Part shown: positions 5,255 to 61,581 of the stretch, piece after piece
Layout of the letters: each line of letters begins with the position of its first letter
How positions within the stretch are numbered: position 1 is the first letter of the stretch
DNA from: Piedraia hortae CBS 480.64
Taxonomy: Eukaryota
Length of the DNA stretch: 64,000 bases
NCBI GenBank assembly: GCA_010093745.1
Contig: MU005974.1
Coordinates: forward strand, 186,001 to 250,000
Reading direction: 5' to 3'
Made by a program: the position numbers and the translations under genes
The notes under the pieces: model-generated
What the model was told of the DNA's origin: nothing
Databases searched by the model: none
What the model saw: the letters and a program-made list of their open reading frames with translations, nothing else

Positions 5255-5582
5255 GGCTGTGTAATGACAGGACGTGACAGGAAGTAACGAACACTTTACG
5301 TTTCACCGGCTGCCACTGACACAGGCTGATGACGAGAAGTGACAGGGAGTGACGCACACTCTGTTTTGCACTCGCTGCCAATGACACTCACCAGTGACAG
5401 AAGGTGACGATCACTCTGTTTCACTTCCTGTCAATGACACAGATTAGTGACATAAAGTGACAGGGACTGTATTTTCCACGGCCTGTAAATGACACAGACC
5501 AGTGACCGAAAATGACCGTCACACCATGTTTCACCGCCTTTCAATGATACAGAATAGTAACAGAAAGTGACCGTCACTATCT
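5255..5582. repeat. Degenerate ~54-bp minisatellite (5-6 units) rich in TGACA
   Basis: Units resemble GTTTCACnnnCTGTCAATGACACAGAnnAGTGACAGAAAGTGACnGTCACT and start near 5300, 5363, 5418, 5472 and 5528. Confidence 0.8.
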
Positions 5583-18901: not shown

Positions 18902-19665
18902 CAAGCCGTATACCTCGCTCAATCAGAATTCTGGCATCTTGCCTTTTCTGGTAACTCTGTTACTCCTTTCGTCTTTCTTAAGTTCTGGTGCTCCAACCAC
19001 CAGAATCGCCAGAATCTTACGTAATCAGCAGGGCAGCGGAATCTGTTCCACCAAGTTAAGCTCTCTCATTATTCCCAATTGGGGCTCTAAGAGAGGGCCG
19101 TGTGCCTTTCCTCTCTGGAATTCTGGCTCAGATTGGCGGCGAGGTTAGACAATGGACCCTAGTATATATTCTCCCTAAGAACAGGCCTGCCTGATCAGGC
19201 TGCCTTGATTTGATCCATAATTTTTGCCCCTCATTTCCCCCATTGAACTGCATATTGGCAAACCTTTTAAAGTAGCACACCAATTACGGTCGAGAAAGCT
19301 TTAGATTGACTATTTACTCATCCAGAGGTGGATTACCACTGTTGTTTCCGTCCGACCTGCCGGCTTCATCACCATAAGCCTCATTCACAATTATGGCAGC
19401 TTCGAACAACCCCAGCAAAGGCCCTTGGATTTGTCAGGGATCAGTTTATCGCGGCCGGTGTCTTTCATGACCAGCTTGCGTTCACTTTGTTCCTCATCGA
19501 TATCCAAAACATCGTCATCGTTGCTTTCTTCGCCGTCGTCGACCATGACGATCTCCTTGTAATTGGCAGGATTATTGAGGCGCTCGGGGGGTACCATACC
19601 AAGCGGGTCACAATTCCGCCGTCATAATTGGGCGGAAAAACGCCGGCCTAAGTATCAATAGTTAG

Positions 19666-19808
19666 TGTTGTGCAGGTCGCCACGGAGCGATCCGCAGGTG
19701 ATGAACCACATCCCTGACCAGGGTTCGAGTACTCAGAAATATTCTTGTGGATCTCTAGATACGCGTGTATACTGACACACCTGTGAGGTGCCGCTGCTTA
19801 TTAGAACA
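19666..19808 (-). mobile_element. Solo LTR (family A), 143 bp, with perfect 5-bp TSD GTTAG
   Basis: TGTT...AACA ends; GTTAG at 19661-19665 and 19809-19813; reverse complement of 24956-25100 and 54830-54970. Strand is given relative to those copies. Confidence 0.9.
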
Positions 19809-20139
19809 GTTAGCTTCAATATATTATGACAACAGTCCACGTACCGAAGCAGCGCCAGGAGCCTGGTGCGCTGGGTAGGCGACATACATGACAACGGAGT
19901 CATCAGAATCGACTGACGATTCGAGCGTCACGTCTCCCGGCTGGACGACGGTTAGTAATACTATTAGATGAAGAAGAAAACAAGACCCACCAACTGGCGA
20001 GTTGCCATTCCAAGGCTATCGCCTTCACGGCCCTCGCATTATTATTAGCTTGCATCTTCTTTTGCAAAGGTGAACGCTGACACTTACCTCCATCATGGGC
20101 AAGGCGGCCGCACGGAACCCCTGTCCAAGAACCGCAGAA

Positions 20140-20882
20140 TCATCGGCGAAAGGACCTGAACAACAGGCTTCGAACGGACGAGTCTGCATTGATCTCCGCT
20201 CCCCAGTATTCGGCATCGAGTAAGTTTTCGGGCCCCTCCCCCTCGTTCCTCAGCTGCTTGAGTGTCGTCAGGCAGACCAAAACACTGACTACCGCCGTGC
20301 CGATGATGTCACGCATATTCATGCACTCAAACATGAATATGAGGTCGCCCGAAGATTTGACCATGTTCTTTTCCAACGCCAAGGAGCCTTTGAAAGTTGC
20401 TGCAAATATCTTTCTCCAAAAGTTGCCTTATGCCTTGAGAGCATTCGGAGGAATCATTTTCATCTCCGTACCAATGGGATGTTCAACACACCACATCTTG
20501 GTATGCTTTAGTAGCTTGTTAATATCATCGCACGTCATAGTATCGGGATTTTTGGAGAGGGGCCTAAAAAGCTTATAAACCTTTTCGTTGGTTTTTAGGT
20601 CGGGGAACCGATGCAGAAAGACGTTCATCTTTGCGGCAGACGAAGAGAATGGTGGTACCAGAGGAAACTATCTGAGTGGATGTCTAGAATTAGCAATGGT
20701 ATGTCGGTGTTTGATAGAAAGTTAAGGTCAACAGGAGTGGGAGTGGGAGACCAGGGTGAGGTAGACACATTTCCATTAAGAAAGCCGCCGACAACGCGAC
20801 GCGCATGGGAGTCATATTCATTACGCACTAAGAAGTGAACCCGGTTGATGCCGGTCCGTGTATAAACAGCGAAGTGCGTCAC
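20140..20882 (-). pseudogene. Disrupted coding relic of unknown family
   Basis: Three consecutive protein-like minus-strand ORFs (20882-20625, 20628-20428, 20382-20140) are joined by one frameshift and one in-frame stop. Confidence 0.35.
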
Positions 20883-21365
20883 CTTATCTTAAATTTCCCT
20901 GTACTCGAAGGTTCTCGACAAAGAGAGAAACGAATTAGTGGTAAAAGGGGAAAGACGAAAACCCCCAACCAAGGCTATCCATCTCGCCACCACTTCGACC
21001 ACTCTACCGTGCCAGGTGGTGGGAGCCACACCACATTCGGAAGATATCCCATTCTGGACTTGTGCGGTTTGCCTCTTATCAGGGCCGATCGAGAGCACTG
21101 GTGATCCGGAGCGTCAAACTCGCTGGTGCGTTCTGTAGCGATAATGCTCTCGTGGATGGAAGTGCGCAGCGGCCCGAACCATGAGGACGTAGCGATAGAC
21201 TAAGATCAACGACAAGGACAGGAAAGACGCAGGTGGGTAGGGGTCAATACTAGTGTCGATATGACAGTGTGAATGACTATATGTATCTGTTAAGGGACGT
21301 CAGAATCAAAATTCTGTTCCGGTGGGCCGGTGACGTCACGTACACTAGCAGGGCGCATTCGCCCC

Positions 21366-21521
21366 TGTCACATATGACATGACCCTGAGGGAAAACCTCT
21401 GTGAAGGGATAAAAACCTAGGTTGCAGCTGGTAGTGTAGGAGGTAAGTTAAAGGAAACGAGCTAATAGTATATTATATGTGCTGCATACATAAGGACGTC
21501 GTACATGGTCATCACGTGACA
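21366..21521. mobile_element. Putative solo LTR (family B)
   Basis: Ends TGTCACATATGACATGAC and GTACATGGTCATCACGTGACA form an imperfect ~20-bp terminal inverted repeat with TG..CA. Internal TATA-like TATATTATA. No TSD. An internal 15-mer recurs at 54815. Confidence 0.5.
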
Positions 21522-22739
21522 CATCCTTCAACTAGGTATCGCTGACTTGCTATGCAAGTGCCCCGCATACGCGCTAGCGGCGATGCTTAAATCCAACATG
21601 TTCGAACATCTTGTGTGCTTGGATGCCTTGTCCAGGGCATTGCTTCGGATTTGTGAAATTATCTTTGTCCGATGATGAGGCCTTAGACAAAGACCTGCTT
21701 GTAAGTAGACGGAGTTCCCTCATCACGTTAGGAATTCTGTTGAGATCAGCTCATATCATCATCTTCCGATTCATCTCATCCATTCATTGTCTAAAGTCAT
21801 CAATGGAGCCTCCGATAGGGCTTCATAGCATTGCTTTTGCCGGGTGTTGTGGAGCCAGATAAAATTTATGCATCCGAACAAAGAACAAAAAAGAAAAAAC
21901 AGATTGTTAGTCTCCCAAGCATTTCAACCAGTCCTTCCCGTTAATATTTCACACAGCGGTGGCCATCCATCTGTGTGAGCCCAGTGTGAACGTATTCACC
22001 CCCAGCCCACTTGGGCGGGCGGATCGGAAGCAGAGGCTTGGGCGTCGGTAACCTGAGTTAGTTGCGGTAGATTCGAGTCCGGGTTCGAAATTTTGTTGCA
22101 ATTAACCCCATTGCCCCACCCCATTACTAACCCAATTTAAAGTCGAGGAGATAAGGGGTATTGATATCAACAACGTATGCGTAACCGAAGATTAGCCGAC
22201 CAGGCCGCCTACCAGATTGGGGAGTTCAGATGGGATGGTACTGGATGAGTTTTCCACTGACTGACGACGCGATATCGTACAGTGCTTTATTGGCGGCTAG
22301 TCATATTGTGTTAAATAATAAACTTATGTACCAGAATATTCCTCCTGATGCGTAAACCTGTTCATCACTCATGAGACAATTTTTTCACCTGAACACGCAC
22401 AATTAGAGTAGTAGTTGACCGTTGACCTAGAGCCCTTGCAGATTTTAAGATGCTGTTGATTCTTGCTGCCTTCTCCTAGTTTGCTAAATTGCACAACAAT
22501 GCGTAATTCAATCCGGATCAGACCTTGCAAAGAAACGTCAATAAAAGACAATGAAAAAGATTAGCCTCGCTGTCTAGCTCGCTCATTCTGGAGAGGGACC
22601 CCTCCAGTCGTTACTGGTGCTGGACGCACCGAGAGGGAACTTGCCCATAAAGTGCTTTCCTAGCTTTGGCACTATAGTACATATCTCCTGTCAAAACGAT
22701 TGGCGATGAGTTTCCCAGGTGAGAGTAAGTCATCTGCTG

Positions 22740-24880
22740 ACCTCATCTCATCTGCTGTGAGATCGAATTTCGCGTAGTGGTGACAGGAGCATATTCCGTT
22801 TGTCCAGGACGATCGATAAATTCCAGCCGAGTTACATTTGGCGTCTGACGGATGTCCAACGCCACTCTCTGCTGCCGTTCCCTGTACGGAATTATTGCAA
22901 TTTGGAAGGAGATTTGAAGCTGGCGCAGTTTCTCCAGAACGCTTCCATTAACCTTGTGTAAAGTCCACCCCAAGTTTAGGGTGACCCGATTTTTGTGGTT
23001 ATATTCATCAACAATATCGACCTCCGTTGCTAGCCTGACTTCGGGTCAGGCCATTCTCATCCATTTTTTTCACTGCCTTCGAGAATGTCAGTCGGTCATC
23101 AGGGCTACCCAACTCGACGCTCGTCATCGGTTCAGGTCAGGAGTGTAGACTGACTTGCCAGACCACTTGGCGGAATGGTTTCCGTGAGGTGGTCAAATAT
23201 CTCCTTAAACGTTTGAAGCGTCAAGGCGATAGAGGGGACTGCATGAGAGCGGCTTTTGTAGATGCATTCCTGGTGTGACCTTGGGTATATACTCCCTCAT
23301 CGAGTTTCGCGATTGTAAAAGCTGATACTGCGTCGAACAAGAGGATAGTCCCATTTGCTCACTGTCTTCTTCAATTCATCGCCCACATTTCACCGTTTAT
23401 CGTTGTACATTGTGCCTTTGATAAACACGTCCAGCGCGGCGACAGTCGCTGGATCTCAGGAGACTCGAGCCCTCATACAACGACTCGCGGCCTTTGCGTA
23501 TCTCTTTGTGGCAGCCACTCATAGGATGTGGAACAAGTGAATCTGCTCATGGTGGAACCGCTGCTCGTCGCATCCAGAGCCAACTCGCAAAAGTCCGCAG
23601 GGCATCGATTGCACATTCGGCAGGCATTACTACTGTTCTCCGCCTGCTGTGGCATGTCGCCAATGCAACAATAGATCATGGCGCAAAAAATGTGTTTCTG
23701 TCCGGCGATGTTGACCTCCATGCCTGCGTCCAGCTGTTCCATCTCTGGACCGATGGCATCTATGACTTCGGAGGTGTTGATTCCATGTGGTCCCGGCGTG
23801 ATAGGAATGACATTCGACGGACGAGCGCGCTCTTTGACGGACAGGGCATGATTCGTAACATAGAATCCCACGAGCGAATGGTGCATGTTCCTGTAAAGGC
23901 CGTACGCGTCGAAGAACACGATCAGAGGCAAGGAGATGACTGGAATACCGCCATGGAAACTAGGGTAGAATCCAGTCAAATGGGGACTTCCGAAGTGCAA
24001 AATCTCAAGCTCACCTCGAATGGGATGCTGCTTCCAGAAAGGGCGGACTGTGGACGTTGTGCATACGTCGAACGAAATGCGCGCATCCTCAAACCATCTG
24101 AGGTAGGTCAGTACGATTAACGGCACTGTGGAACCCATAATGCATCATAACGGGCGCGCTGGATAGCCTTCAGGCGTCCGGCTGCGTGTACGTGATGTCG
24201 CCTTCGATGAGAAATAATTCCAACGGGCGTGCTGGTGGTTCTTCCGCAATCTTCGAGGAGGTGCATGAGTTGAACCCGCACAAGGCAAAAAAGTCATGCT
24301 GATCTTCTTCCAGCGTGGTGGTATCAAGTGCTTCAAGAAGGGCGACACGGTTGGCTGTGCCCAGCTCTTTCAAGAGAAATCTGAACCGGTAAATAGTCTG
24401 AAAACCACATTTCACGACCCAACACTGCATTTGACAGGCGCATGCAAGCGGGCAAACGCCTTGTACGATTTTTGGGACCAGTCCAAGCCAAACTGCGTAC
24501 AAAGCCTATAATGAGTTGGCAAGTCTTCACGTGGCCATGGCATGCTCATCGTATAAGGCAGTGCGGTCGGTTCAATAGGAAGGCCCATCCCAGGTCGCCG
24601 AACAGTCCTTGTCAAGACTTCGGTGGTTTGAAGAGGGCCATGCGTAATGTGCGTACTCCCCTACATGCCCGAACCCAACACCCGTCTTGTGACGACAAAG
24701 TTGGCCGACACGTATGTGATTAATCGCTATGCGAGAGCCAACTTTATCGTCACTCGTCGCATCTTCACCTGGAAGGAAGAGGAGGCGAAGGTTAAGATCA
24801 TGCCGTTGTTGGATGGGTATTAGCGATTCCAATTCGATTTTATCAAGCGGAGCTCGGCTCTCGACTTGACACGTCAACTA
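22740..24880 (-). pseudogene. Degenerate fungal DDE transposase (Plavaka/CACTA-like)
   Basis: Core 24138-23473 reads HPIRGELE...SLPLIVFFDAYGLYRNMHHSLVGFY...NVIPITPGPHG...LDAGMEVNIAG...GDMPQQAENS. Flanking frames are broken and boundaries are approximate. Confidence 0.55.
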
Positions 24881-24955
24881 GTTTTCCGTAGAGACTTGAA
24901 TGCATACTGGTACACATCTACTCACAATTATAACAAATGGCCCTTTGGGACTTTG

Positions 24956-25100
24956 TGTTCTAATAAGCAGCGGCACCTCACAGGTGTGTCAGTATACACG
25001 CGTACCTAGAGCTACACGAGACAAAATTTCTGAGTACTCGAACCCTGGTCAGGGATGTGGGTCATCACCTGCGGATCGCTCCGTGGCGACCTGCACAACA
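24956..25100 (+). mobile_element. Solo LTR (family A), 145 bp
   Basis: TGTTCTAATAAGCAGCGG...CTGCACAACA; flanks CTTTG and CTTTT (5-bp TSD with one mismatch). Confidence 0.9.
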
Positions 25101-25484
25101 CTTTTTATCATTAACCTTACCGTCCCAGTGTTTCCCTTCAAAATTTCAGCGAAAACACATCACCATAAATCCCTCCAAGTTCTTGCACAGATGCCAATCA
25201 TGGGAAATGCACATGGAATCTCGGCGCATCCAACAGCTCAGAGCGTGGAGACATCCCCAGCGCGACACGGCTAAGGAACGGTAACTTCTTCTAGCTGGAA
25301 AGAAATCCAACAAGGCCTTTCCTCATATGGTCTGGCGGTGATGACCATATCGTGAATTGCATTGGCTCTCCCTATGGAAACATTCACGGCAGGTTCAAGA
25401 AAAAGCTACAAATGTAGCGGCACGGACCGACGATATCTCTCAGTAAAGGAATCGGGACCGTTGGAAATTTGAACCATTTCAGTT

Positions 25485-45646: not shown

Positions 45647-47227
45647 CTACTCGAATTCTATCGTCGCCGGCGGTTTATCCGTTAGATCCACCAGGACTCT
45701 AACCACGCCCTCAACTTCGTTGCAGATTCTTCTGATGATCTTCTTTAGGAGTTTATAATCCATCTCCACGGCGGTGGCAGTCATGAAGTCATCCGTCTTG
45801 ACCGCTCTAATCGCAGCAATGTATCCATGGAATCTCTTGTCCCCCACCACACCCACCGCCTTTCCATCCATCAACGCCAGGACAGCCTGGGAGATGGAAT
45901 CATACAGTCCCGCAGCCCGCAACTCTTCAATAAAAATCGCATCCGCATCCTGCAGGGTCCTGACCTTCTCTTCCGTGACCTCGCCGATGATGCGGATACC
46001 CAACCCCGGCCCGGGAAAAGGATGTCTCCAGACCATCTCCCTCGGCAGGCCCAGTTCGGTCCCCATCTCCCTAACCTCATCCTTGAACAGCTCCCTTAGG
46101 GGCTCAATCAACTTTAGATCCATCTTCTCCGGCAGCCCTCCCACATTGTGGTGCGTCTTGATCGTCTCACTGGGTCCCTTGAACGAAATGCTCTCAATCA
46201 CATCCGGATACAACGTCCCCTGCAACAAAAACTCAATCTTCCCTTTTCCCCCTGCCCTCTCCGCAATCTCCTTCGCAGTCTCATCAAACACCTCGATAAA
46301 CAGTCCACCAATAATCTTTCTCTTCCTCTCCGGATCCGTAACCCCCTTCAACCTCCCAAGAAATCTCTCCCTCGCATCCACAACGGTCAAATCAATCCCC
46401 AGCCCCTCCCTCAACGTCCTCTTCACGCTCCGCGCCTCATCTTTCCTGAGCAACCCATTATCAACAAGCACAGCATGAAACCTCTTCCCAATCGCCTCAT
46501 GCATCAACCTCGCCGCAACCGAAGAGTCAACTCCCCCACTCACTGCCCCAATAACCTGCCCCTTCTCCCCCACCGTCTCCCTAATCCTCGCAATCTCCGT
46601 CGCAACGAACCTCTTCATCGTCCAATTCTGCTTCGCCTGGCAAATATTAACCGCGAAATTGCGAAGCAGCCCTACCCCGCACGCCGTATGCGTGACCTCG
46701 GGGTGGAATTGGATCCCCCACACCCCCTTATCCGGCCTCCCTATTGCAGCATACGGCGACGAACTCGTCGTTGCAATAACCTCAAACCCCTCCGGCAACG
46801 CCGACAATTTATCTCCATGAGACATCCAGACATCCACCTTCTCCCCCAATCCTTCAAAGAGCCCCCCGGCGGTTGTGACCTCTAGCTCCGCGTGCCCGTA
46901 CTCTTTCTTCGCCCCCGCTACGACGCCCTGGCCGTGGTGCCATGCTATTTCTTGCAGGCCATAGCAGATCCCCAGGATGGGGATTCCGAAGGTGAATGTT
47001 TTGGGGGAGATGTGCGGGGCAGAGGGCGAGTACACGCTATATGGACCGCCGGAGAGGATTATGCCTTTGGGCGTGAAGGGGAGGGTGGTGGGGTCCACCG
47101 TGCAAGGGTAGAGCTCGGAGTAGACCCCTAACTCGCGCAACCGGCGCGTGATGAGGTGCGTGTATTGAGAGCCGAAGTCGAGGACGAGGAGCGTGTCGAA
47201 GAGAGTGTGTGGTGGTGCGGCGGACAT
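45647..47227 (-). CDS. GUA1: GMP synthase (glutamine-hydrolysing)
   Basis: [49 protein letters not shown] and KPPATIEFE. Likely start is ACCATG at 47227; an in-frame upstream ATG lies at 47452. Confidence 0.96.
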
Positions 47228-47848
47228 GGTGATTTGGGGTTGGGATTTTGTTTTTTTTTTGTTATTTTTTTTGGTGGGGTGAGGTGACCCCGCCGGAGGG
47301 GTTCCGTGGTTTTGTGTGGGATTTGGCTCAGAATGGGAGGGTTGATGGAATCGTTTTGTGGGATATTCTGCTGAGAGTAATCTACGAACAGTAGGTGCTG
47401 CAGATCTCTGTGCTACATACGTGGTCGGACGTACTGACAGACGTCGTTGCATTGGTATTGGGGATAAAGTAGAGTCTGCGACTGGCTACTTGCATCCTCA
47501 GAAGCAGATTTGCAATGCTCCTTTACGTCTTTGACGAAAACACAGACGTTCTACAAGGGTTAGCGCGGGATTGTTCCGCGCCGACGCGAACAATTTAATT
47601 CTTGGTATCAAACATCGACATCATCTCATCATCGGCTTGTCACCCGTCAAAGATCTCACATTTCGACGTGTAACTGTAGATGAATGGAGGTGCAGTGCGA
47701 TTCTCAAGCGATGTTCATGGCTGACGTTGAACGGCAAGGGCCGCTTCGATGAACTTTAGTGTTGACTTCATTTCATCAGGACTGACCAGAAGCAGGACAA
47801 GTGTTGCCCTGTTGAAGAGCTGCGAGGCGGGCTTCCCTTGCAATATCT

Positions 47849-48046
47849 CATCTCTGTGTGTCTTGAAAGAGGTGATGTAGAAATAAGGTTCAACTGCGGC
47901 TTCTCGCCGCTCGACCGCGGAAGATAGAGATGCCTTAGACATTGCCTCAGTTTCACACCGTACCTTCGTCGATTCCCTGTAGAACGTCAGAAGGTCGTGA
48001 TAGAGGTAATCTAACGCTGTTGTGCGCGAATTCACTTCGAAAAGCC
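47849..48046 (-). repeat. ~198-bp dispersed repeat, copy 1 (coding-like relic)
   Basis: Reverse complement aligns without gaps to 61384-61581 and encodes LFEVNSRTTALDYLYHDLLTFYRESTKVRC. Confidence 0.85.
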
Positions 48047-48949
48047 GCATCCCCGGCTGAAAAGCAAATCCCATCCGTGCAAGATCGAAGATCATGCAAG
48101 GCCATTAGCATATGGAAGAGATGCTATTAATCTAAGGCCCATGGTGGACTAGAAGAGGGCCTGACTGTCCGACAGTCTCAATGGCTAACTAAGAGACATG
48201 TATGCCACCAATATCGCTCCTCCTGACGCCAGAGATGGGGGTGCTGGATGCTGGTTTGAATATTGGAAGTACCCCGATCATTGTATAACAGCAAAATGAA
48301 TACAGTGCGATTGCATTGTTACAGTTTTGGCAGGAATGAGCATGTCAGTTGATGCGAAAATTGTTACATCAAACGAACGTCGAATGCTGAGGATGGTCCC
48401 AATCGCCCAAAATTCCAGCTGAGCCGTAGCCATCCAGCTCAAGATCAATCGCACGCCGAAGGAGTGCCTACTTGACTCAAGACCTCCACAAAGATATCTG
48501 GAATGAGTTTACAAATAGTCGATTCATCCCATGATGGACAACAACAATACAGTCCGAGTTCTGCATTTACATATCGCAGAAACACATGAACTCTCCATGA
48601 CCACACCAGCTATCGATGCACTCATCAATCTAACTGGCACACAATGTTCAACGCGGACGGAAGACTACTATGCGGCCTCTGCAACAATCCTTCAAGCCTA
48701 CCATAATATCTTCAGTGAGATAACCTTGCCCAAGGCCGTGAGCCAAACAATTCAAGCCCACATAAATCAACATTTTGCTTTTATTACATCAGAAAAACTA
48801 CATTCCCTCGCTCAAGACATTCTGAGCAATTAGGTTCCATTACTTCAACAGTTCAGAACACATGATATATAACCCCCCGAACAGCTGCAAGCACAACCCA
48901 CAACAACAGCCCGAAACAAGCCGTTCCAGACCAGGAACTCGTTTACACA

Positions 48950-49760
48950 GGCACCAGAGCGAGGAAGTACGGAGTTACACAGCAATTCGAAGACCGGTAA
49001 AAGCAAAACGTCACCAGCCGGGAGAGACGGACAAAAGAGCTCCGACCCTCAATGGGCCGGAGCAGGGGACTTGTCACGCCCGACGTTGTGTCCCTTCCCT
49101 CTAAGTTCAGTTTCTTTTGGACATGGACCTCGATCGATCACGTGTCTCGACACCGATTACAGAACGCATGAGCGATGCCTCCAGACGGTGATGTCCAGCA
49201 GGTAAATACCTCGCCATGACTATGCCTGTTACAGCACTACCATCCTTCCCGACACTGGATCAAGTTACCACTTCATCAAAGACAAAGCACTGTTCATATC
49301 ACTGACTGATCGACCAGTTTGGTTTAGTCAGGCAGTTACAGAAGCAAAATGGTATGGAAAGCAACAGCCGAGATGGGCAAATCTGGAGCAACAATCTCTT
49401 CCAATACAATACAGGGGCTTCGAAAGTTGGCAATGGCGCATCCAGACTGAACGGGGCCATCCAGAAGCCAAAGCCATCGAATTCTTCGTATGTGAGGCCT
49501 GCGACGGAGCCGAAATTGTCAAGATTTCCTTACACGATTTCTTCCGGCCAGTAGCTTATACCGGCGAATCCATCCACTATCGAACTGAATCGGTCGATGG
49601 CAACGAATAGCTAGGACCCGATTGCTACTTCATGCTTATGGAGTCCGTCTGTGATGGTCACAATGCATGTCTCCCGGTGCTGTGAAGGCAATACACGTTG
49701 ACGGAGCGAGGGAGCTGGTCAATGGTGTTTCCCTGGTCGAGTCCTTTTGCAGCGAACGAC
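48950..49760 (+). mobile_element. Possible highly decayed LINE (Tad1-like) remnant
   Basis: Weak motif echoes only: SIDH (~49130), TGS..H (~49255), LGPD (~49612) and ELVNGVS (~49712). Confidence 0.2.
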
Positions 49761-50512
49761 GATTGGGTTGAGGACTTCAGTGCCGCAACATCATCATCAG
49801 AACCTATTTCCGATGGGATAGATTAGTCTGATTCTGATTCTGTTCCGGACTGGGAGGGTGTTGGGTTTGAGGCAGTATAGGTTCTGAGTAACATGGGGCG
49901 CATTGTGACAGGGGCCGGAGAGGAGCGGAACAGGGTTTGGGAGTGTAAGGCTGGGAGAAAGAAGGACCGACCGGCCGTAAGTTCAGAGCGGTCCCACGCT
50001 TTCCCAAGTTGTGTTTTCTCGTACATAGTGCTCGATAGACACTTGTCTCGACGCGGGCACACGCATTGGAGCTTCTTTGTATTCTGCTTTGTGGGTTCCC
50101 TGGTTTAAACCGGGGAGAGCTGGGAGGGCGATCCTTTGGTGTGGATCTGAAGGAATGAATGGCTGCCTTGCTGTCGTACTGTGATATAGCGGATCCACCT
50201 GATGGATTCGAGGCCATGGCATACTCATTTAGCCTTTTATGGTGTCCAAATTAGGTCAGAATCAACGAGAGAGTATTGCCCACTAATGAATAATCAATAT
50301 ATCCGTCCCCCAGTCTCCATCTAACTTCATGTCAAGTATAATGTTGACAAATGCACTAGTGTATGTGGCTTGTGGTCAACATCAGCGCCGAGACGTATGG
50401 TGTCGCCACGCATCGTCGAGGGCAACCGTCATGCCGAGACTTATGGTGTCGTTGCTCATTGCCTGCTCCTCCTCCTGCTCTTCTTCTTTCACTTCAACAT
50501 CCCCATTTACTC

Positions 50513-50748
50513 CTCACGGGAAACTCGCATTACCAACAGATACCATCATAAAGTCTGCGTCTCCATCTATTTCGTTTTTCCATGCATGCATGGCCAAGTG
50601 CTCTCTCCTATATCATTACAGCTTCGCCCATTCTATCGTACTTTCAAAGCATCTTCCATAGCCATATTGTCTTTGAATACCGTCGAATACTCCGATAACA
50701 TACCCACAGACGGAACCTATCCCTCGAATTCTCACCAACACCACCTCT
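50513..50748 (+). repeat. 236-bp direct repeat, copy 1
   Basis: Aligns without gaps to 54579-54814 with about 11 substitutions. Confidence 0.9.
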
Positions 50749-50805
50749 TTTCTTCACGAGGATTAAGAGCTCGAGCACTAAGGAAGAAAGAGCCAAGAGG
50801 CAATC

Positions 50806-51370
50806 CTGTTGATGTTAGTCGGGAGCCAGTCCCGATAGGCCTAGGGTGACCAGCAACCTCATCTCTAGAGTCTCAGCAAAAAGGTAGCAGCAACAACATT
50901 GTCTTTCATGTCACTTCCCGTTCTTATATTCACTATATCCAAGGTGCACTGACCTGGACCCACGCTTCACAGACCTGCTACCTATCTGCGGGTATGTCCA
51001 CGAGCTACAGGGAGAACTGAAATTTCCAACACGAAACCACCAACGAGGATACGAACAATTAAATCTACGATTAGACGACACGTAAGAGAGGACTATGAAA
51101 GACATTTGGCGTCTGCGGCACGAAAGCTGGCCCTAGGAAGTGAGAGGGTGGATTCCACATTTAAATGCCGCAGCTCGATGACGTCTGCACCTGAGTCAAA
51201 CTCGTGGCGTACCGCTCCATCACCAATCTGACCACGGTGAACAGTCTTTCCTAGAAGTTCGGGTACCTAATCGCTGGGCAAACATGGCTATCACAATTTC
51301 GCAGGCACTCTCAATTCGAACCCTCGTGAAACCTTCAGCAGCCCCTCTCTACCACACATTGACCAATTAC
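50806..51370 (+). repeat. 565-bp perfect inverted repeat, left arm
   Basis: Exact reverse complement of 54980-55544 by eye. The same 64-aa ORF is called in both arms. Confidence 0.95.
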
Positions 51371-51435
51371 GATCGCCAAGCCACCCCCCTTGCCATTACA
51401 AGGTACCTAACTTAGCTGAGCAAGCCCATTATCTC

Positions 51436-51481
51436 GAAAGTTAAACTGGGGGTGCGAGACTCGCACCCCAGTTTAACTTTC
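51436..51481. repeat. 46-bp near-perfect palindrome (hairpin)
   Basis: GAAAGTTAAACTGGGGGTGCGAG-A-CTCGCACCCCAGTTTAACTTTC: 22-bp stem with one bulged G. Confidence 0.9.
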
Positions 51482-51759
51482 TCAAGCACAGATAACAGTG
51501 ACTGCCACCAGACGACACGTTCTGCACACCCCCGAGCTGCCTAATGCGATGCACAACGGCGCGGTGAGACTGGCAGAAGACTTTGGAGCACATGCTTTTA
51601 CTGACAGACTGCTTCCGAACTGCTAGCCGAGGGCATGGAGGTAATCGTCGCAGTGTCTTCATGGAAGAAGGACACGCTCTCAAATCCCAACGCGCTGTGC
51701 AGTCAACCTGGCGTTGTTGCTTCCCTACCCAATTGGGCCTAGCTTGTGACGTCACACAA

Positions 51760-51845
51760 ACTGTAACAATTGACCCGTCCACCAGCAATCCGTAACAATT
51801 AACCCATGGCAATCCGTAACATTACCCACCCAGCAATCAACAATG
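51760..51845. repeat. ~25-bp tandem repeat x3
   Basis: (GCAATCC)GTAACA(A)TT(A/G)ACCC units. Confidence 0.65.
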
Positions 51846-52750
51846 TCCCTCCCCCCAAAAAAACGTCGGCCCTCAATGCCTCCCAAAAAACGCAACCCCC
51901 CTCAAACGAAAATTCCCACCCCTTCACTCCTTCCGCCTTCCCCAGCTGGATCGAACTGGAATTCGAACCCGCCTTCTTGACCGTGATGAGTTGAAGAGGG
52001 AGGAAAGGGAAGAGATGATCAAAGTGAGGAATCGGGGACACGATTTTGAGGGGTTCGTAAGGACTTGGTTACGTGTCCTGGCGGATAATGGAACGTTGGG
52101 GGAGTTGGTTAGGTGGCGTTAGGCGGGGCAGAGTGGATGGACGCTGCGACATAGCGGGTGGTGGGGCGGAATGGAAGGGTGCTGAGAAAACAAGGCAGAG
52201 ATTCTCATGAGTGTGTTGCTCATTGCGTCTCGAAGGCCACGAATAAACGGTGTAAAATGGTACGGTGAGCAATGGGTTGGTCATTTGGAGTGTAAAAACG
52301 TTATTTCCTACACAGAACACCTCAGTACTATCACCCCAGTACTGTCAGTGTTTTGAGCAAATATCAGGCGCAGTTTAGATAATAACGTGATCAAGGTTAC
52401 GGAGCTACTTGAAAGGCAAGCCTAGACCCAAAGCCATCGGGCTGAGCTGAATGCCGCGCCGCAATTGTGCTTCCTGCCAACCCCTCCAGTTGGGAATAAC
52501 TGTAGCCGCGCCCCATTGATCCCGGTCCATAAAGGCGGGGTAGTGTGGAGCAAGTTCGGGCCGTTTGCTGTCTGAGCTGCTACGATGCATCGACTTTATT
52601 AATATCCGCCAATTGGAATGGCCGCGCACTTTACCCGCGCGCGATCGGCGCGTAGTTCAACCTCATCTGATCCAAACGTGCTGAAGTGCGGCGCCTGAGC
52701 GAAACCTCGTGACCTATCATTAAACGCCCAAATCTTAATAGGCACATCGC

Positions 52751-54271
52751 ATGGATGAATCCGACCAGACAGCTGTGATCGGCGGTACCAAACGGAAGCG
52801 CGATGGGGACGCATTATTAGAGTCGGACAGACCCCCGAAACGCTTTGCTACAAGTCTTTCGATTTGTTCTTTTGATATAAGCGGTCCGGATGACCCCGTT
52901 GCTCATTGGGTTTCAGCATCCAACTGGCCATCCAGCATGGGCGAACCTTCCAACCCCCGAAAGCGGACTGCAGAGTCTATAACCACAGTCCCGATCAACG
53001 AATACAAAAAGGTTATTGTTCAGCTTCCAACGAACGTCCAAAATTTGATGAAGCGGGAAAACTTGGAAAAGTACAGCAAGTATGGGAACGGTGTCTATCT
53101 GCCCGTTCCGGATACAGGGCTTGATTCTGCTAAAGCGTGGGACGAGAGGAAAGAAATTTGCGAAGATTCAAACGAATCCTACCTTGTCCAATATTTGACC
53201 AAACTCATCCTGCCATGCCCCGCTGACATACTGACCAATGACGACCCTGGGAGGACGGAAATTCAGAATCTTCCTGATGTCGACTGGGAATGGAAACTGT
53301 CGGATGGAAAACCACCGAGGCCGAACATCACTCTCGGTTTAATGCCGCAAGTTTTCACCACAACGCAGCTGAGAAGACTTGAAAATTACAATCAAGTAAG
53401 ACCAGCAGCGTTCGCGAGAGGGCTGTTTTTCCCATTCTTCGTGTGTGAGGTGAAGGCCCACGACGGCAAATGGGATGAAGGACTAAAACAGGAGTTTGGT
53501 GCTGCGGCTACCTATGTTGACGCAATCGTTCAGTTGTGCGAGGCTGTCAAACCTGATGAGGTTAACCAGCTGCAGGGCCAGATCCTTGGCTTTGGCATGT
53601 TGCACAACCATAAGAAAATTGAAATCTATGGACACTTCTTTCTCAAGGACGATGACGAGAAGGAGATCAACTACTATCGCCACAAGTTTTTCGACATCCA
53701 AGTCAGCGAAAACTTTGAAGTGAATCCTGACTATGGCGTCCCGGGTGGGAGACATCCAGATCGCAGGATGAGTAGTAAATCTGCTGCAATTATTCAGGAG
53801 CTGTACACCAAATTTTATGCCTTGCACAAGAAAAGAATCATGGACTATGTGAACATGCTGCCTGACGCAACAGATCTACAAGTGGGCATCACCCAGGAGC
53901 ATCTTGAGGCGACATCTAGCAAGAGACAAAGGACTACCGCCAACGCTACCTCCACCGCCCAGGCTAACAATAAAGTGATTGCGGCTAAGGATGAAGTGAT
54001 TGAAAAGTTGGAGCAGCAAATTCAGCAAGTGCGTATGGGTAAGGATGCAGAAATTGAAAGGAACGATCAGGCCAATGCCAAAGTAATTGCGGCTAAGGAT
54101 GAAGTGATTGCGGCTAAAGTCGCAGAGAACGAGAGGTTGCTGCAACGGTTGCAGCAGATGAGGGAAGACGCTCAGGGAGACAAGCGCGCTTCTTTGCAAC
54201 AAATCGAGTTCTTCCAACGTCAATGTGAGAGTCTACAAGAGGAGTTGCGCAAGAATCAAAGGCCGAACTAG
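52751..54271 (+). CDS. Uncharacterised fungal PD-(D/E)xK-fold-like protein (resembles DUF7924 family) with C-terminal coiled coil
   Basis: 506-aa intact single-exon ORF. PRPNITLGL..FT..QL..L, FPFFVCEVKA, ILGFGMLHNH..IEIYGHF, YYRH and HKKRI...V..LP; NLS-like KRKR and RKR; KVIAAKDEVI repeats. Confidence 0.75.
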   Translation: MDESDQTAVIGGTKRKRDGDALLESDRPPKRFATSLSICSFDISGPDDPVAHWVSASNWPSSMGEPSNPRKRTAESITTVPINEYKKVIVQLPTNVQNLMKRENLEKYSKYGNGVYLPVPDTGLDSAKAWDERKEICEDSNESYLVQYLTKLILPCPADILTNDDPGRTEIQNLPDVDWEWKLSDGKPPRPNITLGLMPQVFTTTQLRRLENYNQVRPAAFARGLFFPFFVCEVKAHDGKWDEGLKQEFGAAATYVDAIVQLCEAVKPDEVNQLQGQILGFGMLHNHKKIEIYGHFFLKDDDEKEINYYRHKFFDIQVSENFEVNPDYGVPGGRHPDRRMSSKSAAIIQELYTKFYALHKKRIMDYVNMLPDATDLQVGITQEHLEATSSKRQRTTANATSTAQANNKVIAAKDEVIEKLEQQIQQVRMGKDAEIERNDQANAKVIAAKDEVIAAKVAENERLLQRLQQMREDAQGDKRASLQQIEFFQRQCESLQEELRKNQRPN

Positions 54272-54578
54272 CCGCCGGATGTCAATTTAGAATGATTACA
54301 GAACGACCAGCGGGAGCACATGGGGAATTTGTATTTAGAAAGACTCAATGTGTGGTGCACACAGTTGATATTGATCACTTTAGTTGTAGTAGCTGTTGTC
54401 ATCAACCATCCCCTTCCTTTCCTCCTCGACGACTATCCTATTGACCATCAATCGCTCCCCTTGGTCGTCGTGATCTTGGACTATCATGGACCCTGTTTAC
54501 TGACACCGACTGATTTTTTCCCCATCTAAGCATCCCAGACCTTGCCATAAGTTAACAGAGGTGCAGTGAGACTTGGGT

Positions 54579-54814
54579 CTCGCGGGAAACTCGCATTACC
54601 AACAGATATCATCATAAAGTCTGCGTCTCCCTCTATTTCGTTTTTCCACGCATGCTTGGCCAAGTGCTCTCTCCTATATCATTACAGCTTCGCCCATTCT
54701 ATCGTACTTGCAAAGCCTCTTCCATAGCCATATTGTCTTTCAATACCGTCGAATACTCTGATAACATACCCACAGACGGAACCTATCCCACGAACTCTCA
54801 CCAACACCACCTCT
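54579..54814 (+). repeat. 236-bp direct repeat, copy 2
   Basis: Copy of 50513-50748. Confidence 0.9.
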
Positions 54815-54829
54815 AGTTAAAGGAAACGA

Positions 54830-54970
54830 TGTTCTAATAAGCAGCGGCACCTCACAGGTGTGTCAGTATACACGCGTATCTAGGGCTACTTGAAAATTTC
54901 TGAGTACTCGAACCCTGGTCAGGGATGTGGGTCATCACCTGCGGATCGCTCCGTGGCGAACTGCACAACA
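54830..54970 (+). mobile_element. Solo LTR (family A), 141 bp, no TSD
   Basis: TGTTCTAATAAG...CTGCACAACA; flanks AACGA and TTGGC do not match. Confidence 0.9.
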
Positions 54971-54979
54971 TTGGCTATT

Positions 54980-55544
54980 GTAATTGGTCAATGTGTGGTA
55001 GAGAGGGGCTGCTGAAGGTTTCACGAGGGTTCGAATTGAGAGTGCCTGCGAAATTGTGATAGCCATGTTTGCCCAGCGATTAGGTACCCGAACTTCTAGG
55101 AAAGACTGTTCACCGTGGTCAGATTGGTGATGGAGCGGTACGCCACGAGTTTGACTCAGGTGCAGACGTCATCGAGCTGCGGCATTTAAATGTGGAATCC
55201 ACCCTCTCACTTCCTAGGGCCAGCTTTCGTGCCGCAGACGCCAAATGTCTTTCATAGTCCTCTCTTACGTGTCGTCTAATCGTAGATTTAATTGTTCGTA
55301 TCCTCGTTGGTGGTTTCGTGTTGGAAATTTCAGTTCTCCCTGTAGCTCGTGGACATACCCGCAGATAGGTAGCAGGTCTGTGAAGCGTGGGTCCAGGTCA
55401 GTGCACCTTGGATATAGTGAATATAAGAACGGGAAGTGACATGAAAGACAATGTTGTTGCTGCTACCTTTTTGCTGAGACTCTAGAGATGAGGTTGCTGG
55501 TCACCCTAGGCCTATCGGGACTGGCTCCCGACTAACATCAACAG
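54980..55544 (-). repeat. 565-bp perfect inverted repeat, right arm
   Basis: Reverse complement of 50806-51370. It extends 9 bp further (2 mismatches) up to the solo LTR end at 54970. Confidence 0.95.
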
Positions 55545-55794
55545 CTGTCAGTGTCGGAGTGACAGGTGAGTCATATTATTGTTTTAGACTTTTCCAAAAA
55601 CACCCAAATTCAGAGGTAAAGCTTGGCGTACATTGCCACCGAAATTCTTGCTAGGAGCTGGGATGATTCCCAAATTTTCGCAAATTTTGAATTTTCGTGC
55701 GGTGAGTGATCACGGCCTGCCCCGCAAAGGGTCGCCCCACGAATCCGAACCCTAACATCACAACTGCTGCCAGCGAGCTCAGCGACAGCATCCC

Positions 55795-56739
55795 ATGTCC
55801 AAATTCACCCTCGCGCTTGTGGCGGGCGCGTCGGCAGCCATCGGGGCAGCTACAACAGCAGTAATCTACAGCTTCAGCGGCGATGAGCGGCGCTCAACGT
55901 CCATCTCCAGCGCGTCCCCGTCGCCTATCCCATCACAACGGCAACAGGCGCCAGTTGACCCTGCCGGACTCTTCCAGTATGGCTTCCCCGGTCCAGTGGC
56001 AGACCTTCACAGCACACCAGCGCTGATATCGTGCTTCGATCGCGCACGGCGCAACCCTCACTGGGTAGCAGAACACATTACTCCAGCCTCGCTGCTCAGA
56101 CGCGAAGGCGACCGCAGACTTTCCAATTTCGTTGAAGATCTTACCATTCCCGAGCACTTTCGCGCTAAGTTAAAGGACTACTTCCGCTCTGGCTACGACC
56201 GCGGCCATCAGGTGCCTGCAGCAGATGCCAAATGGAGCCAAGAGGCTATGGATAGTACCTTTGCCCTCAGCAACATGTGTCCGCAGGTGGGTGATGGCTT
56301 CAACCGCGACTACTGGGCCCATTTGGAGGATTTTTGTCGAAGGCTGACGAAGCGGTATCCGTCCGTCCGGATCGTTACGGGGCCGCTGTATCTCCCCAAA
56401 AGGGACGCTGTAGATGGCAAATGGAAGGTGACGTACGAGGTTGTTGGCCATCCACCAAATGTCGCCGTGCCTACGCATTTCTACAAGGTCATATTCGCGG
56501 AAGATGGACATATCGGTGGCAATGTAAGCCTTGCGGCTTTTGTGCTGCCAAACGCGGTCATCAAAAATGATACGCCCTTGTCTCAGTTTGAGGTTCCCGT
56601 AGAAGCAGTGGAGAGAGCGAGTGGACTCGACTTTGCGAGATTGTTGCCTGAGAACCGAAAACGGAAGCTCTGCAAAGAAATGGATTGCTCGATTCTTGTA
56701 AAAGAGTATGACGACGCGAGGAAGAAACTGACGCAGTAA
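55795..56739 (+). CDS. NUC1: Mitochondrial DNA/RNA non-specific endonuclease (endonuclease G)
   Basis: RRNPHWVAEH, GYDRGHQVPAAD, SNMCPQVGDGFNRDYW and VAVPTHFYKV. Confidence 0.96.
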   Translation: MSKFTLALVAGASAAIGAATTAVIYSFSGDERRSTSISSASPSPIPSQRQQAPVDPAGLFQYGFPGPVADLHSTPALISCFDRARRNPHWVAEHITPASLLRREGDRRLSNFVEDLTIPEHFRAKLKDYFRSGYDRGHQVPAADAKWSQEAMDSTFALSNMCPQVGDGFNRDYWAHLEDFCRRLTKRYPSVRIVTGPLYLPKRDAVDGKWKVTYEVVGHPPNVAVPTHFYKVIFAEDGHIGGNVSLAAFVLPNAVIKNDTPLSQFEVPVEAVERASGLDFARLLPENRKRKLCKEMDCSILVKEYDDARKKLTQ

Positions 56740-57049
56740 TATGTATCATAGTGAATTCGATGTGGACCGCCGGAGCTGCCCCAGTTACTTTTGTCTCCGC
56801 CCGAGTTTTGAAGTTGTATGATAAAATTACTGCACTGTGGCCGTTGCTGGTGAATGTACGTTTGGAGGCCTTCACAAGCACTGAATCTTGTATCACAAAT
56901 GTACCATGTCAATCACTCTTATCAGCTTACGCCCTTGAATCAATCACTGGTGTAACAGCAATCGAGGGTTTGTCACTGATTCAACAAGAGTGCCACTCGT
57001 CTCGGCGCGACCCTAGCCAGCTATAAAATCTCCCCATTGCCCCGTCTGC

Positions 57050-60200: not shown

Positions 60201-61383
60201 GTGCAGCAGAAGCAAAAAATACTGCGACGAGCGTTTCCAGTGCGATGTGTGTCTGGGTGCATTACGCGTAAAGCAACCACCTGGGAACCCTGTCACCGTC
60301 AAAAGGGAATTAAGCTTCTTTAAGGACCTAAGGAAACAGCTGATTGGGCAATTTACAGCACATTCGCTGTAGGATTGCTCCTCGACTACGATCCACAAGC
60401 GTAAGATGTGTGAGTACACTGAAGCGCTGATGCTTGTGTCGATAAATTACTACCTCATTTAAGCTGTCGGTGAGCAAAGATGGTTGCAATAATGTTAACA
60501 TCCTTTTCACATCCATTCTGGAGGCTAACAAAGGGAGAATGACCAGAACAAAAGTCCCTGCTGTTGCGATCCACCGGAGACATGATGGAAAAGAAACCAC
60601 AAACGATGCAGCTGTGACCCTGACTGGACTGTCGAGGTTCAGGTTCCTCTGCTTTCATCTAGGCTTGTTTTATATACCCAGGAATGTCTCACTGAAACCA
60701 AAGAACATTGAGACTCCTTCATCCACCATATCATGAGCGAAGAGGATTTACCCCGGTTCATCAGAGGTATACCACTACTTTCGCTTTAACGCCTGCGGTC
60801 GGCATGGATCTCACAACTAATAAACGGAACGCCACCTTCGCATTTGAGGAAAATCAAAGATGTCCCGAGTACTCATGCTCGAAATTTCCAACCGCATTCC
60901 ACAATGTACCTATATTGTGTTGAATGCTGTTTATTTGAGTGTGCTGCCGTCCATAACTTGTGGAGAACGTCTACCACCCATCTAACTCTTCCTCCAAATG
61001 TTCAATACAACTCAAGAGGCTCGGGTATAACCTCACGACCGAACCCGCCACGGCATTCCTTTGGCAGGGAGACTTGGAAGCAATGTGCTATTACGACATA
61101 TATCGAATTATCAGCGGATCGACGTTACAGTCCGTGTTTTGGCAGAGAGACAAGGGCGGGGAGTGGAGGGGGAGAGGTATTTTATGAACCTACTTACCCG
61201 TGTACGTTCACAAGTGAGGGGGTTGTTGATCCCTAACAGATGACTCCAAGTACTATCTTCATCCATCAGAAACAGAGAGGCTTGAGGCAGGAGGAATTTG
61301 GAAGCATACTGGGATCAGAAAAAGGACTTTGCTGAGTGTCCGCATGATGGCTCAGTCCTTTGGGTTGAAGATGGCGTGTGTGG

Positions 61384-61581
61384 GGCTTTTCGAAGTGAAA
61401 TCACGCACAACAGTGTTAGACTACATCTATCACGACTTTCCGACGTTCTACAAGGAATCAAAGAAGGTACGGTGTGATACTGGGGTAATATCTAAGGTAT
61501 CTCTATCTTCTGCGGTCGAGCGACGAGGAGCCGCTCTTGAACCTTAGTTCTACATTACCTCTTCCAAGACACACAGAGATG
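61384..61581 (+). repeat. ~198-bp dispersed repeat, copy 2
   Basis: Inverted relative to 47849-48046. It carries a TAG where copy 1 has TAT. Confidence 0.85.

Follow-up and report, generated by a model that had tools for sequence, protein, structure and literature searches.

A perfect 565-bp inverted repeat around a DUF7924 gene of Piedraia hortae CBS 480.64, best read as a local mosaic of dispersed repeats

Recombination between dispersed repeats in the same orientation deletes the intervening DNA and leaves a single copy with mismatched flanks, and ectopic recombination of solo long terminal repeats (LTRs) and other dispersed repeats leaves elements that lack a target site duplication (TSD) in yeast Ty/delta and in plant LTR retrotransposons. 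In other genomes, inverted repeats are reported to be kept more than 99.9% identical by arm-to-arm gene conversion (PMC3723533, PMC1803023). Here we analyze a cassette from the fungus Piedraia hortae CBS 480.64, in which a perfect inverted repeat encloses a single intact open reading frame (ORF) of the DUF7924 family between the genes GUA1 and NUC1. The window referred to below is the whole stretch of DNA analyzed, 64,000 nucleotides of contig MU005974.1 (positions 186,001 to 250,000 of the forward strand, assembly GCA_010093745.1). When the arms are compared with the repeats around them and with contigs from public sequencing runs, the cassette is best read as a local repeat mosaic and not as a mobile unit. 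The origin that we tentatively favor, and place slightly short of probable, is that an inverted sister copy was cut back by recombination between dispersed repeats, leaving the right arm as its remnant, and that arm-to-arm gene conversion has since equalized the two arms.

Positions 50806-51370 and 54980-55544 are reverse complementary at 100% identity over 565 bp, a claim of an earlier note on this DNA that both a repeat finder and BLAST confirm. Comparison of the whole window with itself identifies the arms as its sole perfect long repeat, and the same note was right that every other repeat has diverged (71 to 95% identity). Homology between the arms runs 9 bp further inward, 51371-51379 being paired with 54971-54979, and includes two mismatches, which read G on the left and A on the right at 51371, and C on the left and A on the right at 51374. 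Outside the arms and beyond this extension it ends sharply, with matches at 5 of 20 and 9 of 31 bases, respectively. By our own calculation, the probability that both mismatches would fall by chance in the last 9 of the 574 homologous positions is about 2e-4. The flanks outside the arms (..GGCAATC and CTGTCAG..) contain no direct repeat of 2 to 9 bp that could represent a TSD. Repeat-induced point mutation (RIP) was dismissed as a source of the divergence, as the RIP indices are unremarkable and no RIP-like composition or bias was found. A small inverted repeat, CTGTCA..TGACAG at 55545-55575, adjoins the right arm on its outside, and the NUC1 start codon follows about 250 bp downstream.

Additional insight is gained from Logan contigs of two public sequencing runs that were compared with the region, one a DNA run and the other (X1) guessed to be RNA; the contigs are shorter than the 565-bp arm, and neither run covers 55600-56800. 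The left flank (49500-50546) shows zero differences in both runs. The cassette interior is matched by many contigs at 90 to 99% identity, as are the arm and the ORF, and all three are consequently assigned to a repeated family. In both runs, a paralogous contig aligns colinearly over 51271-51596, from the left arm across its inner edge into the interior. At both mismatch sites, 51371 and 51374, this contig reads A, as the right arm does. It follows that the 9-bp extension is real family sequence and that a longer repeated unit ends with the arm, which is not a self-contained terminal inverted repeat (TIR).

The outer 129 bp of the arm, here termed repeat Z, appear to have an origin of their own. 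In the left arm, repeat Z is flanked by AATCC (50802-50806) and TATCC (50936-50940), a TSD-like match at four of five positions, and a contig joint in the DNA run leads from 50801 directly to 50936, skipping the 134 bp that make up repeat Z and 5 bp (side 39, depth 35.8). The reversed copy in the right arm (55415-55543) has GGATA on its inner side and an unrelated outer flank, so that it has no TSD. From these flanks and this joint, repeat Z is apparently a short dispersed element in its own right, inserted with a 5-bp duplication into family sequence continuing to the left of the arm, and the joint would then represent a Z-free paralogue. A second joint in the DNA run connects the end of a 141-bp solo-LTR-like element with the arm (54970 to 55414; side 29, depth 13.3), where sides of less than 30 are often spurious. 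The two joints fall at one and the same arm position viewed from both arms (50935/50936, mirrored by 55413/55414). The DNA run gives summed contig depths, which are not copy numbers and are used only to show differing degrees of repetition, of 13.9 for the left flank, 65.6 and 22 for the inner arms, 61 to 88 for the ORF, 121.9 and 171.1 for the bins holding the outer ~130 bp (repeat Z) of each arm, and 907 to 1471 for the 141-bp element.

The history that we favor would combine these observations as follows. The locus would hold one full DUF7924 unit and, downstream of it, a 574-bp inverted remnant of the upstream region of a sister copy, the remnant ending exactly at the tips of two unrelated short repeats, the 141-bp solo LTR on the inside and repeat Z on the outside. 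As both arms carry repeat Z at one site, the sister copy would postdate the insertion of repeat Z. Two deletions by ectopic recombination, each between repeat copies in the same orientation, would suffice to trim the sister unit to 574 bp, and we infer this mode of deletion because the LTR and the right-arm repeat Z both lack a TSD at the ends of the remnant. Gene conversion between the arms would subsequently homogenize the body of the homology and spare its last 9 bp, where both mismatches lie. The structure is not uniformly young, since the direct repeats A and A' (Table 1) differ by 5% and the LTR copies in the window by 5 to 8%. A single inversion between two LTR copies or two copies of repeat Z was rejected as the origin, as an inversion duplicates no arm and the window holds no partner LTR to the right of the arm. 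A perfect inverted repeat of 565 bp should permit ordinary homologous recombination to invert the 3.6-kb interior from time to time, and such occasional inversion by general recombination is likely, with no sign that it is a programmed switch.

Table 1. Positions in the window of the cassette, its component repeats, and the neighboring genes
Feature	Position	Strand	Basis or remark
Left arm, perfect inverted repeat	50806..51370	+	Repeat finder, BLAST, and direct comparison
Imperfect inward extension of arm homology	51371..51379	+	9 bp, 2 mismatches
Right arm	54971..55544	-	9-bp imperfect extension and 565-bp perfect arm (54980-55544)
Repeat Z (putative), outer 129 bp of left arm	50807..50935	+	Inferred from TSD-like flanks, contig joint, and depth
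Direct repeat A, copy 1, 236-241 bp	50508..50748	+	95% identical to 54579-54814
Direct repeat A', copy 2	54579..54814	+	236 bp, pairs with 50513-50748
46-bp hairpin	51436..51481	.	DNA fold -22.5 kcal/mol, z -7.3
Short tandem array, ~24-29 bp units	51757..51838	+	Two repeat finders
506-aa DUF7924 ORF	52751..54271	+	Pfam PF25545; basic N-terminus, PD-(D/E)xK-like core, C-terminal heptad-like repeats
Codon AAC, Asn192 at the family PD aspartate	53324..53326	+	61-sequence alignment and codon check
Possible poly(A) site, 120 nt past the stop codon	54391	+	X1 contig end
Solo-LTR-like element, 141 bp, TGTT..AACA, without TSD	54830..54970	+	Comparison with 2 relatives in the window
GUA1-like GMP synthase ORF, left neighbor	45647..47485	-	Pfam GATase 3.1e-42, GMP_synt_C 4e-33
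NUC1-like non-specific endonuclease ORF, right neighbor	55795..56739	+	Pfam Endonuclease_NS 1.2e-69

The only gene within the arms was also placed into the context of its family. DUF7924 (PF25545) is the sole Pfam family in the ORF and is matched over residues 137-320 (5.6e-32, 111.6 bits against a cut-off of 27), and a phmmer/HMMER scan of 1.84 billion representatives returned 405 relatives at E<=0.001. The closest of the database relatives are two proteins of Piedraia hortae CBS 480.64 itself, one 78% identical over the full length and one 91% identical over 75%, the C-terminus of the latter diverging from that of the ORF after about residue 377; beyond these two, no further close relatives were found, shorter proteins included. 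The ESM Atlas contains the ORF letter for letter. A lead from the same source to a PDDEXK_12 cluster (score 0.91) was set aside, as it was not confirmed by Pfam at E<=1. No relevant literature was found that links PDDEXK, fungi, and transposable elements.

Alignment of 61 sequences reveals a near-invariant pattern, E .. P-x-P-D .. F-P-F-x-x-C-E-x-K, in which the D is conserved in 55/61, the E in 58/61, and the K in 56/61 sequences, with Asn at the D position in 2/61. The DUF7924 family thus fits the PD-(D/E)xK motif, whereas the catalytic Asp of that motif is absent from the copy analyzed here, which has N192, E233, and K235. Both close paralogues keep Asp at the position of residue 192, and a contig of the DNA run shows 0 differences over 53230-53457, in agreement with Asn192. 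As Asn replaces the first Asp of the motif, this copy is probably catalytically weak or dead if DUF7924 proteins are nucleases. The earlier description of a single intact 506-amino-acid PD-(D/E)xK-like ORF can accordingly be kept for the reading frame, which is intact, and for the fold, which finds support below, but not for the aspartate of the PD motif.

The PD-(D/E)xK superfamily has an alpha-beta-beta-beta-alpha-beta core, with the catalytic Asp at the start of the second core strand and (D/E)xK on the third. In an AlphaFold2 model of residues 100-400 (predicted local distance difference test 88.4, predicted template modeling score 0.87), the PD position directly precedes strand 94-98 of the model, and E-x-K ends strand 126-135. 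A search of 48,161 Protein Data Bank (PDB) representatives with VIA-align, in which Z scores of 7 to 8 are common background, gave as top structures the nuclease domain of BpuSI (Z score 9.2, root mean square deviation 3.7, 155 aligned residues), DrdV (8.0), TT1808 (7.5), and a fragment of HsdR (7.2). By title, 11 of the 20 top rows are restriction enzymes, restriction-endonuclease-like proteins, or putative nucleases. Foldseek produced no match in the PDB at E<=0.001 (best E 5.4e-3), and a profile search of PDB sequences returned chance-level rows only, the best being HIV-2 reverse transcriptase (E 0.045). On the basis of the consistent match list and the motif together, the predicted core may be assigned to the restriction-endonuclease-like superfamily, with Z scores barely above background. 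Two chains of the human mitoribosomal large subunit, 3j7y_5 (Z score 8.9) and 7a5f_s3 (8.6), match the ORF model comparably, with about 200 residues aligned.

Two further observations concern the 3' part of the gene. Within the region encoding the C-terminus, 53962-54156 is an internal duplication of a 21- to 66-nt unit that encodes ..KVIAAKDEVI.. heptad-like repeats, and it has by far the greatest summed contig depth in both runs (12117 and 178). An X1 contig is identical to 54015-54391 and then continues with 24 A that are absent from the window sequence. This hints at a polyadenylated DUF7924 transcript ending 120 nt past the stop codon, in a run only guessed to be RNA and from contigs, which are poor indicators of RNA ends.

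Distant DUF7924 genes in metagenomes provide a comparison for the wider family, and not for the copies in this genome. A scan with a 10-sequence alignment yielded 34 loci whose relatives are 23 to 43% identical, and in none of the 34 does a long inverted repeat lie close to the DUF7924 gene. Only two weak inverted pairs flank the gene in these loci, one of 85 nt at 79% identity and one of 151 nt at 76% identity, with their copies 8.8 and 10.7 kb apart. Among 73 neighboring ORFs, none matches a transposase, reverse transcriptase, or integrase, and the neighbors are ordinary cellular genes. In 3 of 14 scanned loci, a DUF7025 gene (L005, 12726-14518; L030, 917-2593; L031, 8265-8999) is found no more than ~6 kb from the DUF7924 gene, accompanied by an AAA ATPase domain in L005 and L030. 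Several of the distant genes are split over two frames or fragmentary (L028, L029, L030, L031), and pseudogenes seem to be common.

The remaining components of the cassette listed in the earlier note, namely the hairpin, the tandem array, the 236-bp duplicate, and the TSD-less solo LTR, are all present. The mismatches between A and A' are a mixture of transitions and transversions. The hairpin is not preserved in the paralogous contig, which differs at 51446, 51448, 51452, and 51459 with no partner changes listed. For the tandem array, one finder reports 51782-51838 (period 24, 2.4 copies, 73% matches) and the other 51757-51805. The 141-bp element is flanked by AACGA and TTGGC and thus has no TSD in this copy, whereas 5-bp TSDs flank its relatives at 19664-19808 (CTAAC/CTAAC, perfect) and 24956-25100 (CTTTG/CTTTT, matching at 4/5 positions). 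The termini TGTT..AACA are found in 3/3 window copies and a TSD in 2/3, and no full-length parent element was seen; many unlike loose contig ends occur at both tips of the 54830-54970 copy in both runs. Repeat A, repeat Z, and the 141-bp element are unrelated to one another (best local scores 13 to 18).

No transposase, recombinase, or reverse transcriptase is evident in the surroundings, and the flanks read outside the arms contain no TSD, both as stated in the earlier note: none of the 66 stop-to-stop ORFs of at least 60 amino acids in 47486-52750 and 54272-55794, or of at least 80 amino acids in 19000-25480, matches Pfam at E<=0.01. The last of these intervals contains the two other copies of the 141-bp element (19664-19808 on the minus and 24956-25102 on the plus strand), which are inverted, 5.1 kb apart, and 94.6% identical; 0/22 of its ORFs, among them a 221-amino-acid ATG ORF at 23473-24138, has a Pfam match. 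Rfam gave no matches in 49500-56500 at E<=0.1, and the window contains no tRNA genes. To the left of the cassette, a 3.3-kb contig in each run matches 49500-50546 exactly and extends left of 49500 (depth 322 in X1), and the ORFs of 47486-50800 have no Pfam matches; the region from ~47300 to 50546 may be an unannotated transcribed stretch. A 201-bp inverted pair (47849-48049 and 61381-61581, 88% identical, 13.3 kb apart) encloses the GUA1-side flank, the cassette, and NUC1, and a diverged tandem duplication of ~190 bp at 72% identity is located at 5274-5571.

Several points weigh against a trimmed sister copy equalized by conversion. This history needs several separate events, that is, an inverted duplication, two deletions, and conversion; the other family copies and their ends are known via short contigs only and not directly; and repeat Z as an insertion draws on a TSD matching at 4/5 positions, a single joint whose side has 39 letters, and summed depths, which do not give copy number. 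In addition, the joint from 54970 to 55414 has a depth (13.3) close to that of the flank, and should it come from this locus, the right arm would lack its inner 443 bp there. Perfect identity over 565 bp would equally be produced by an assembler that collapses near-identical arms. It is conceivable, if unlikely, that the structure is an assembly artefact of this kind, as the earlier note also allowed, in which near-identical arms were collapsed to one consensus or the right arm was mis-threaded, with the orientation of the interior perhaps arbitrary. Indeed, the two pieces of the region that are most repeated stand on either side of the right arm, a contig at single-copy-like depth makes the join that omits the inner 443 bp, and a fraction of only 0.59 to 0.64 of the sampled words of the stretch is present in the two runs. 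The mismatches, moreover, lie only near the end of the homology, where graph simplification could not merge variants, whereas bubbles in the interior would be mergeable. However, the depth in the DNA run of contigs with the window letters within the arm exceeds the 13.9 of the flank, at 35.1 for position 51023 (71.8-36.7) and 22.8 for position 51198 (57.2-34.4), a rough measure that fits two arms of the window type and argues against a complete mis-join. The bracketing repeats, at just 129 and 141 bp, should also be spannable by ordinary paired reads, and the joint that skips 443 bp has a side of 29 letters, in the range flagged as often spurious. A rather unlikely history would instead have one very recent inverted duplication, for example by a replication template switch or by break-induced copying primed in repeat Z, copy repeat Z and 435 bp of the left arm to the right side, with no older remnant and no ongoing conversion. 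The lack of any difference in 565 bp is what a fresh copy would show, and the outer boundary coincides with the tip of a dispersed repeat able to supply the priming homology. Against it, a fresh copy would also match in the adjoining 9 bp, where the arms differ at two sites and the right arm has the paralogue letters at both; these differences make one very recent event improbable. The inner junction, in turn, coincides exactly with the tip of an LTR that has no TSD, pointing to older recombination. Of the proposal in the earlier note that an LTR triggered a very recent inverted duplication, the nearest of its three options, we thus retain the LTR-associated duplication, with a right arm bounded by two TSD-less repeat tips, and not the single recent event.

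The readings that give the DUF7924 protein an active role are less probable again. As improbable we regard the possibility that the gene with its ~2 kb of upstream sequence is a selfish nuclease gene, spreading or rearranging via cutting and repair copying and leaving the inverted arm as a repair scar, or that the arms are the ends of an undescribed nuclease-driven long-TIR element. The narrower case, a genuine long-TIR mobile or selfish element whose sole gene encodes a nuclease-fold protein cutting at or near the arms, is very improbable, and this first suggestion of the earlier note is not supported. Its attractions are that the outer ends of both arms are sharp and identical, that this genome has repeated copies of the gene family, non-coding flanks included, at identities of at least 90%, and that DUF7924 combines a PD-(D/E)xK fold with the corresponding motif. 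Terminal inverted repeats, a mark of class II TIR transposons, are likewise present in the form of the 565-bp perfect repeat, in an arm that looks composite. In Neurospora crassa, DUF7924 is also reported as one of the gene families whose copy number varies most between strains (PMC13412767). The other side of the balance holds the lack of a TSD outside the arms and of a known transposase, and the resemblance of the outer 129 bp to a separate insertion with its own TSD, by which the family sequence would continue left of the arm. In addition, an LTR tip sets the inner end of the right arm, and the depth of the inner arms (65.6 + 22) is roughly that of the ORF and not double, a rough comparison. 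None of the 34 distant loci has a close flanking inverted repeat, and this copy carries Asn at the catalytic Asp position. Least probable of all, and highly so, is a programmed flip/flop segment whose orientation controls expression of the DUF7924 gene or NUC1. The arms are identical, and recombination across a perfect 565-bp inverted repeat can in general flip the segment between its arms; yet no recombinase gene was found in the ORFs of the region, and the possible poly(A) site would put the transcript end well inside the interior, with no promoter or terminator swap evident. No strand-changing joint is listed either, which says little as the contigs cannot span the arms.

In the history of trimming and conversion that we favor, the structural phenomena are all of known kinds, namely conversion that homogenizes inverted repeats and solo elements left without a TSD at breakpoints. 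The significance of the locus is mainly cautionary, as a conspicuous perfect inverted repeat that encloses a single nuclease-like gene resolves, on the available evidence, into a mosaic of three repeat families and not into a new transposon. It may also serve as a compact site for measuring inversion and gene conversion between arms in a fungus with a small genome. For DUF7924 itself, the restriction-endonuclease-like fold and the E..PD..ExK motif form a testable biochemical hypothesis and maybe a useful annotation.

Comparison with similar systems places each part of the locus. The palindromes of the human Y chromosome and the long inverted repeats of C. elegans share with it inverted arms around a unique spacer, an identity far higher than in other repeats of like origin, and differences confined to the edges of the homology; the arms here, however, are 565 bp instead of kilobases to megabases, are free of genes, and include one truncated remnant, and their conversion is a proposed one. 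The yeast Ty/delta and plant LTR systems are similar in having a TSD-less TG..CA element at a breakpoint, with relatives in the window that carry 5-bp TSDs, whereas here two families, the 141-bp element and repeat Z, appear to mark the ends of the remnant. Long-TIR class II transposons such as MULE, Foldback, and Galileo also enclose a single-gene interior between terminal inverted repeats several hundred bp long, but the cassette differs from them in having no TSD, no DDE or other known transposase, an arm composed of two repeats, and an inner end set by an LTR. Finally, the nuclease domains of the restriction enzymes BpuSI, DrdV, and HsdR, together with DUF820/TT1808, resemble DUF7924 in its predicted fold and in the placement of its conserved E, PD, and ExK residues, which occupy the helix and strands where they are expected. 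Identity to these proteins is only 8 to 16%, and DUF7924 is distinguished from them by its fungal distribution, a basic N-terminus, a repeat-rich C-terminus, and, in the copy described here, PN in place of PD.

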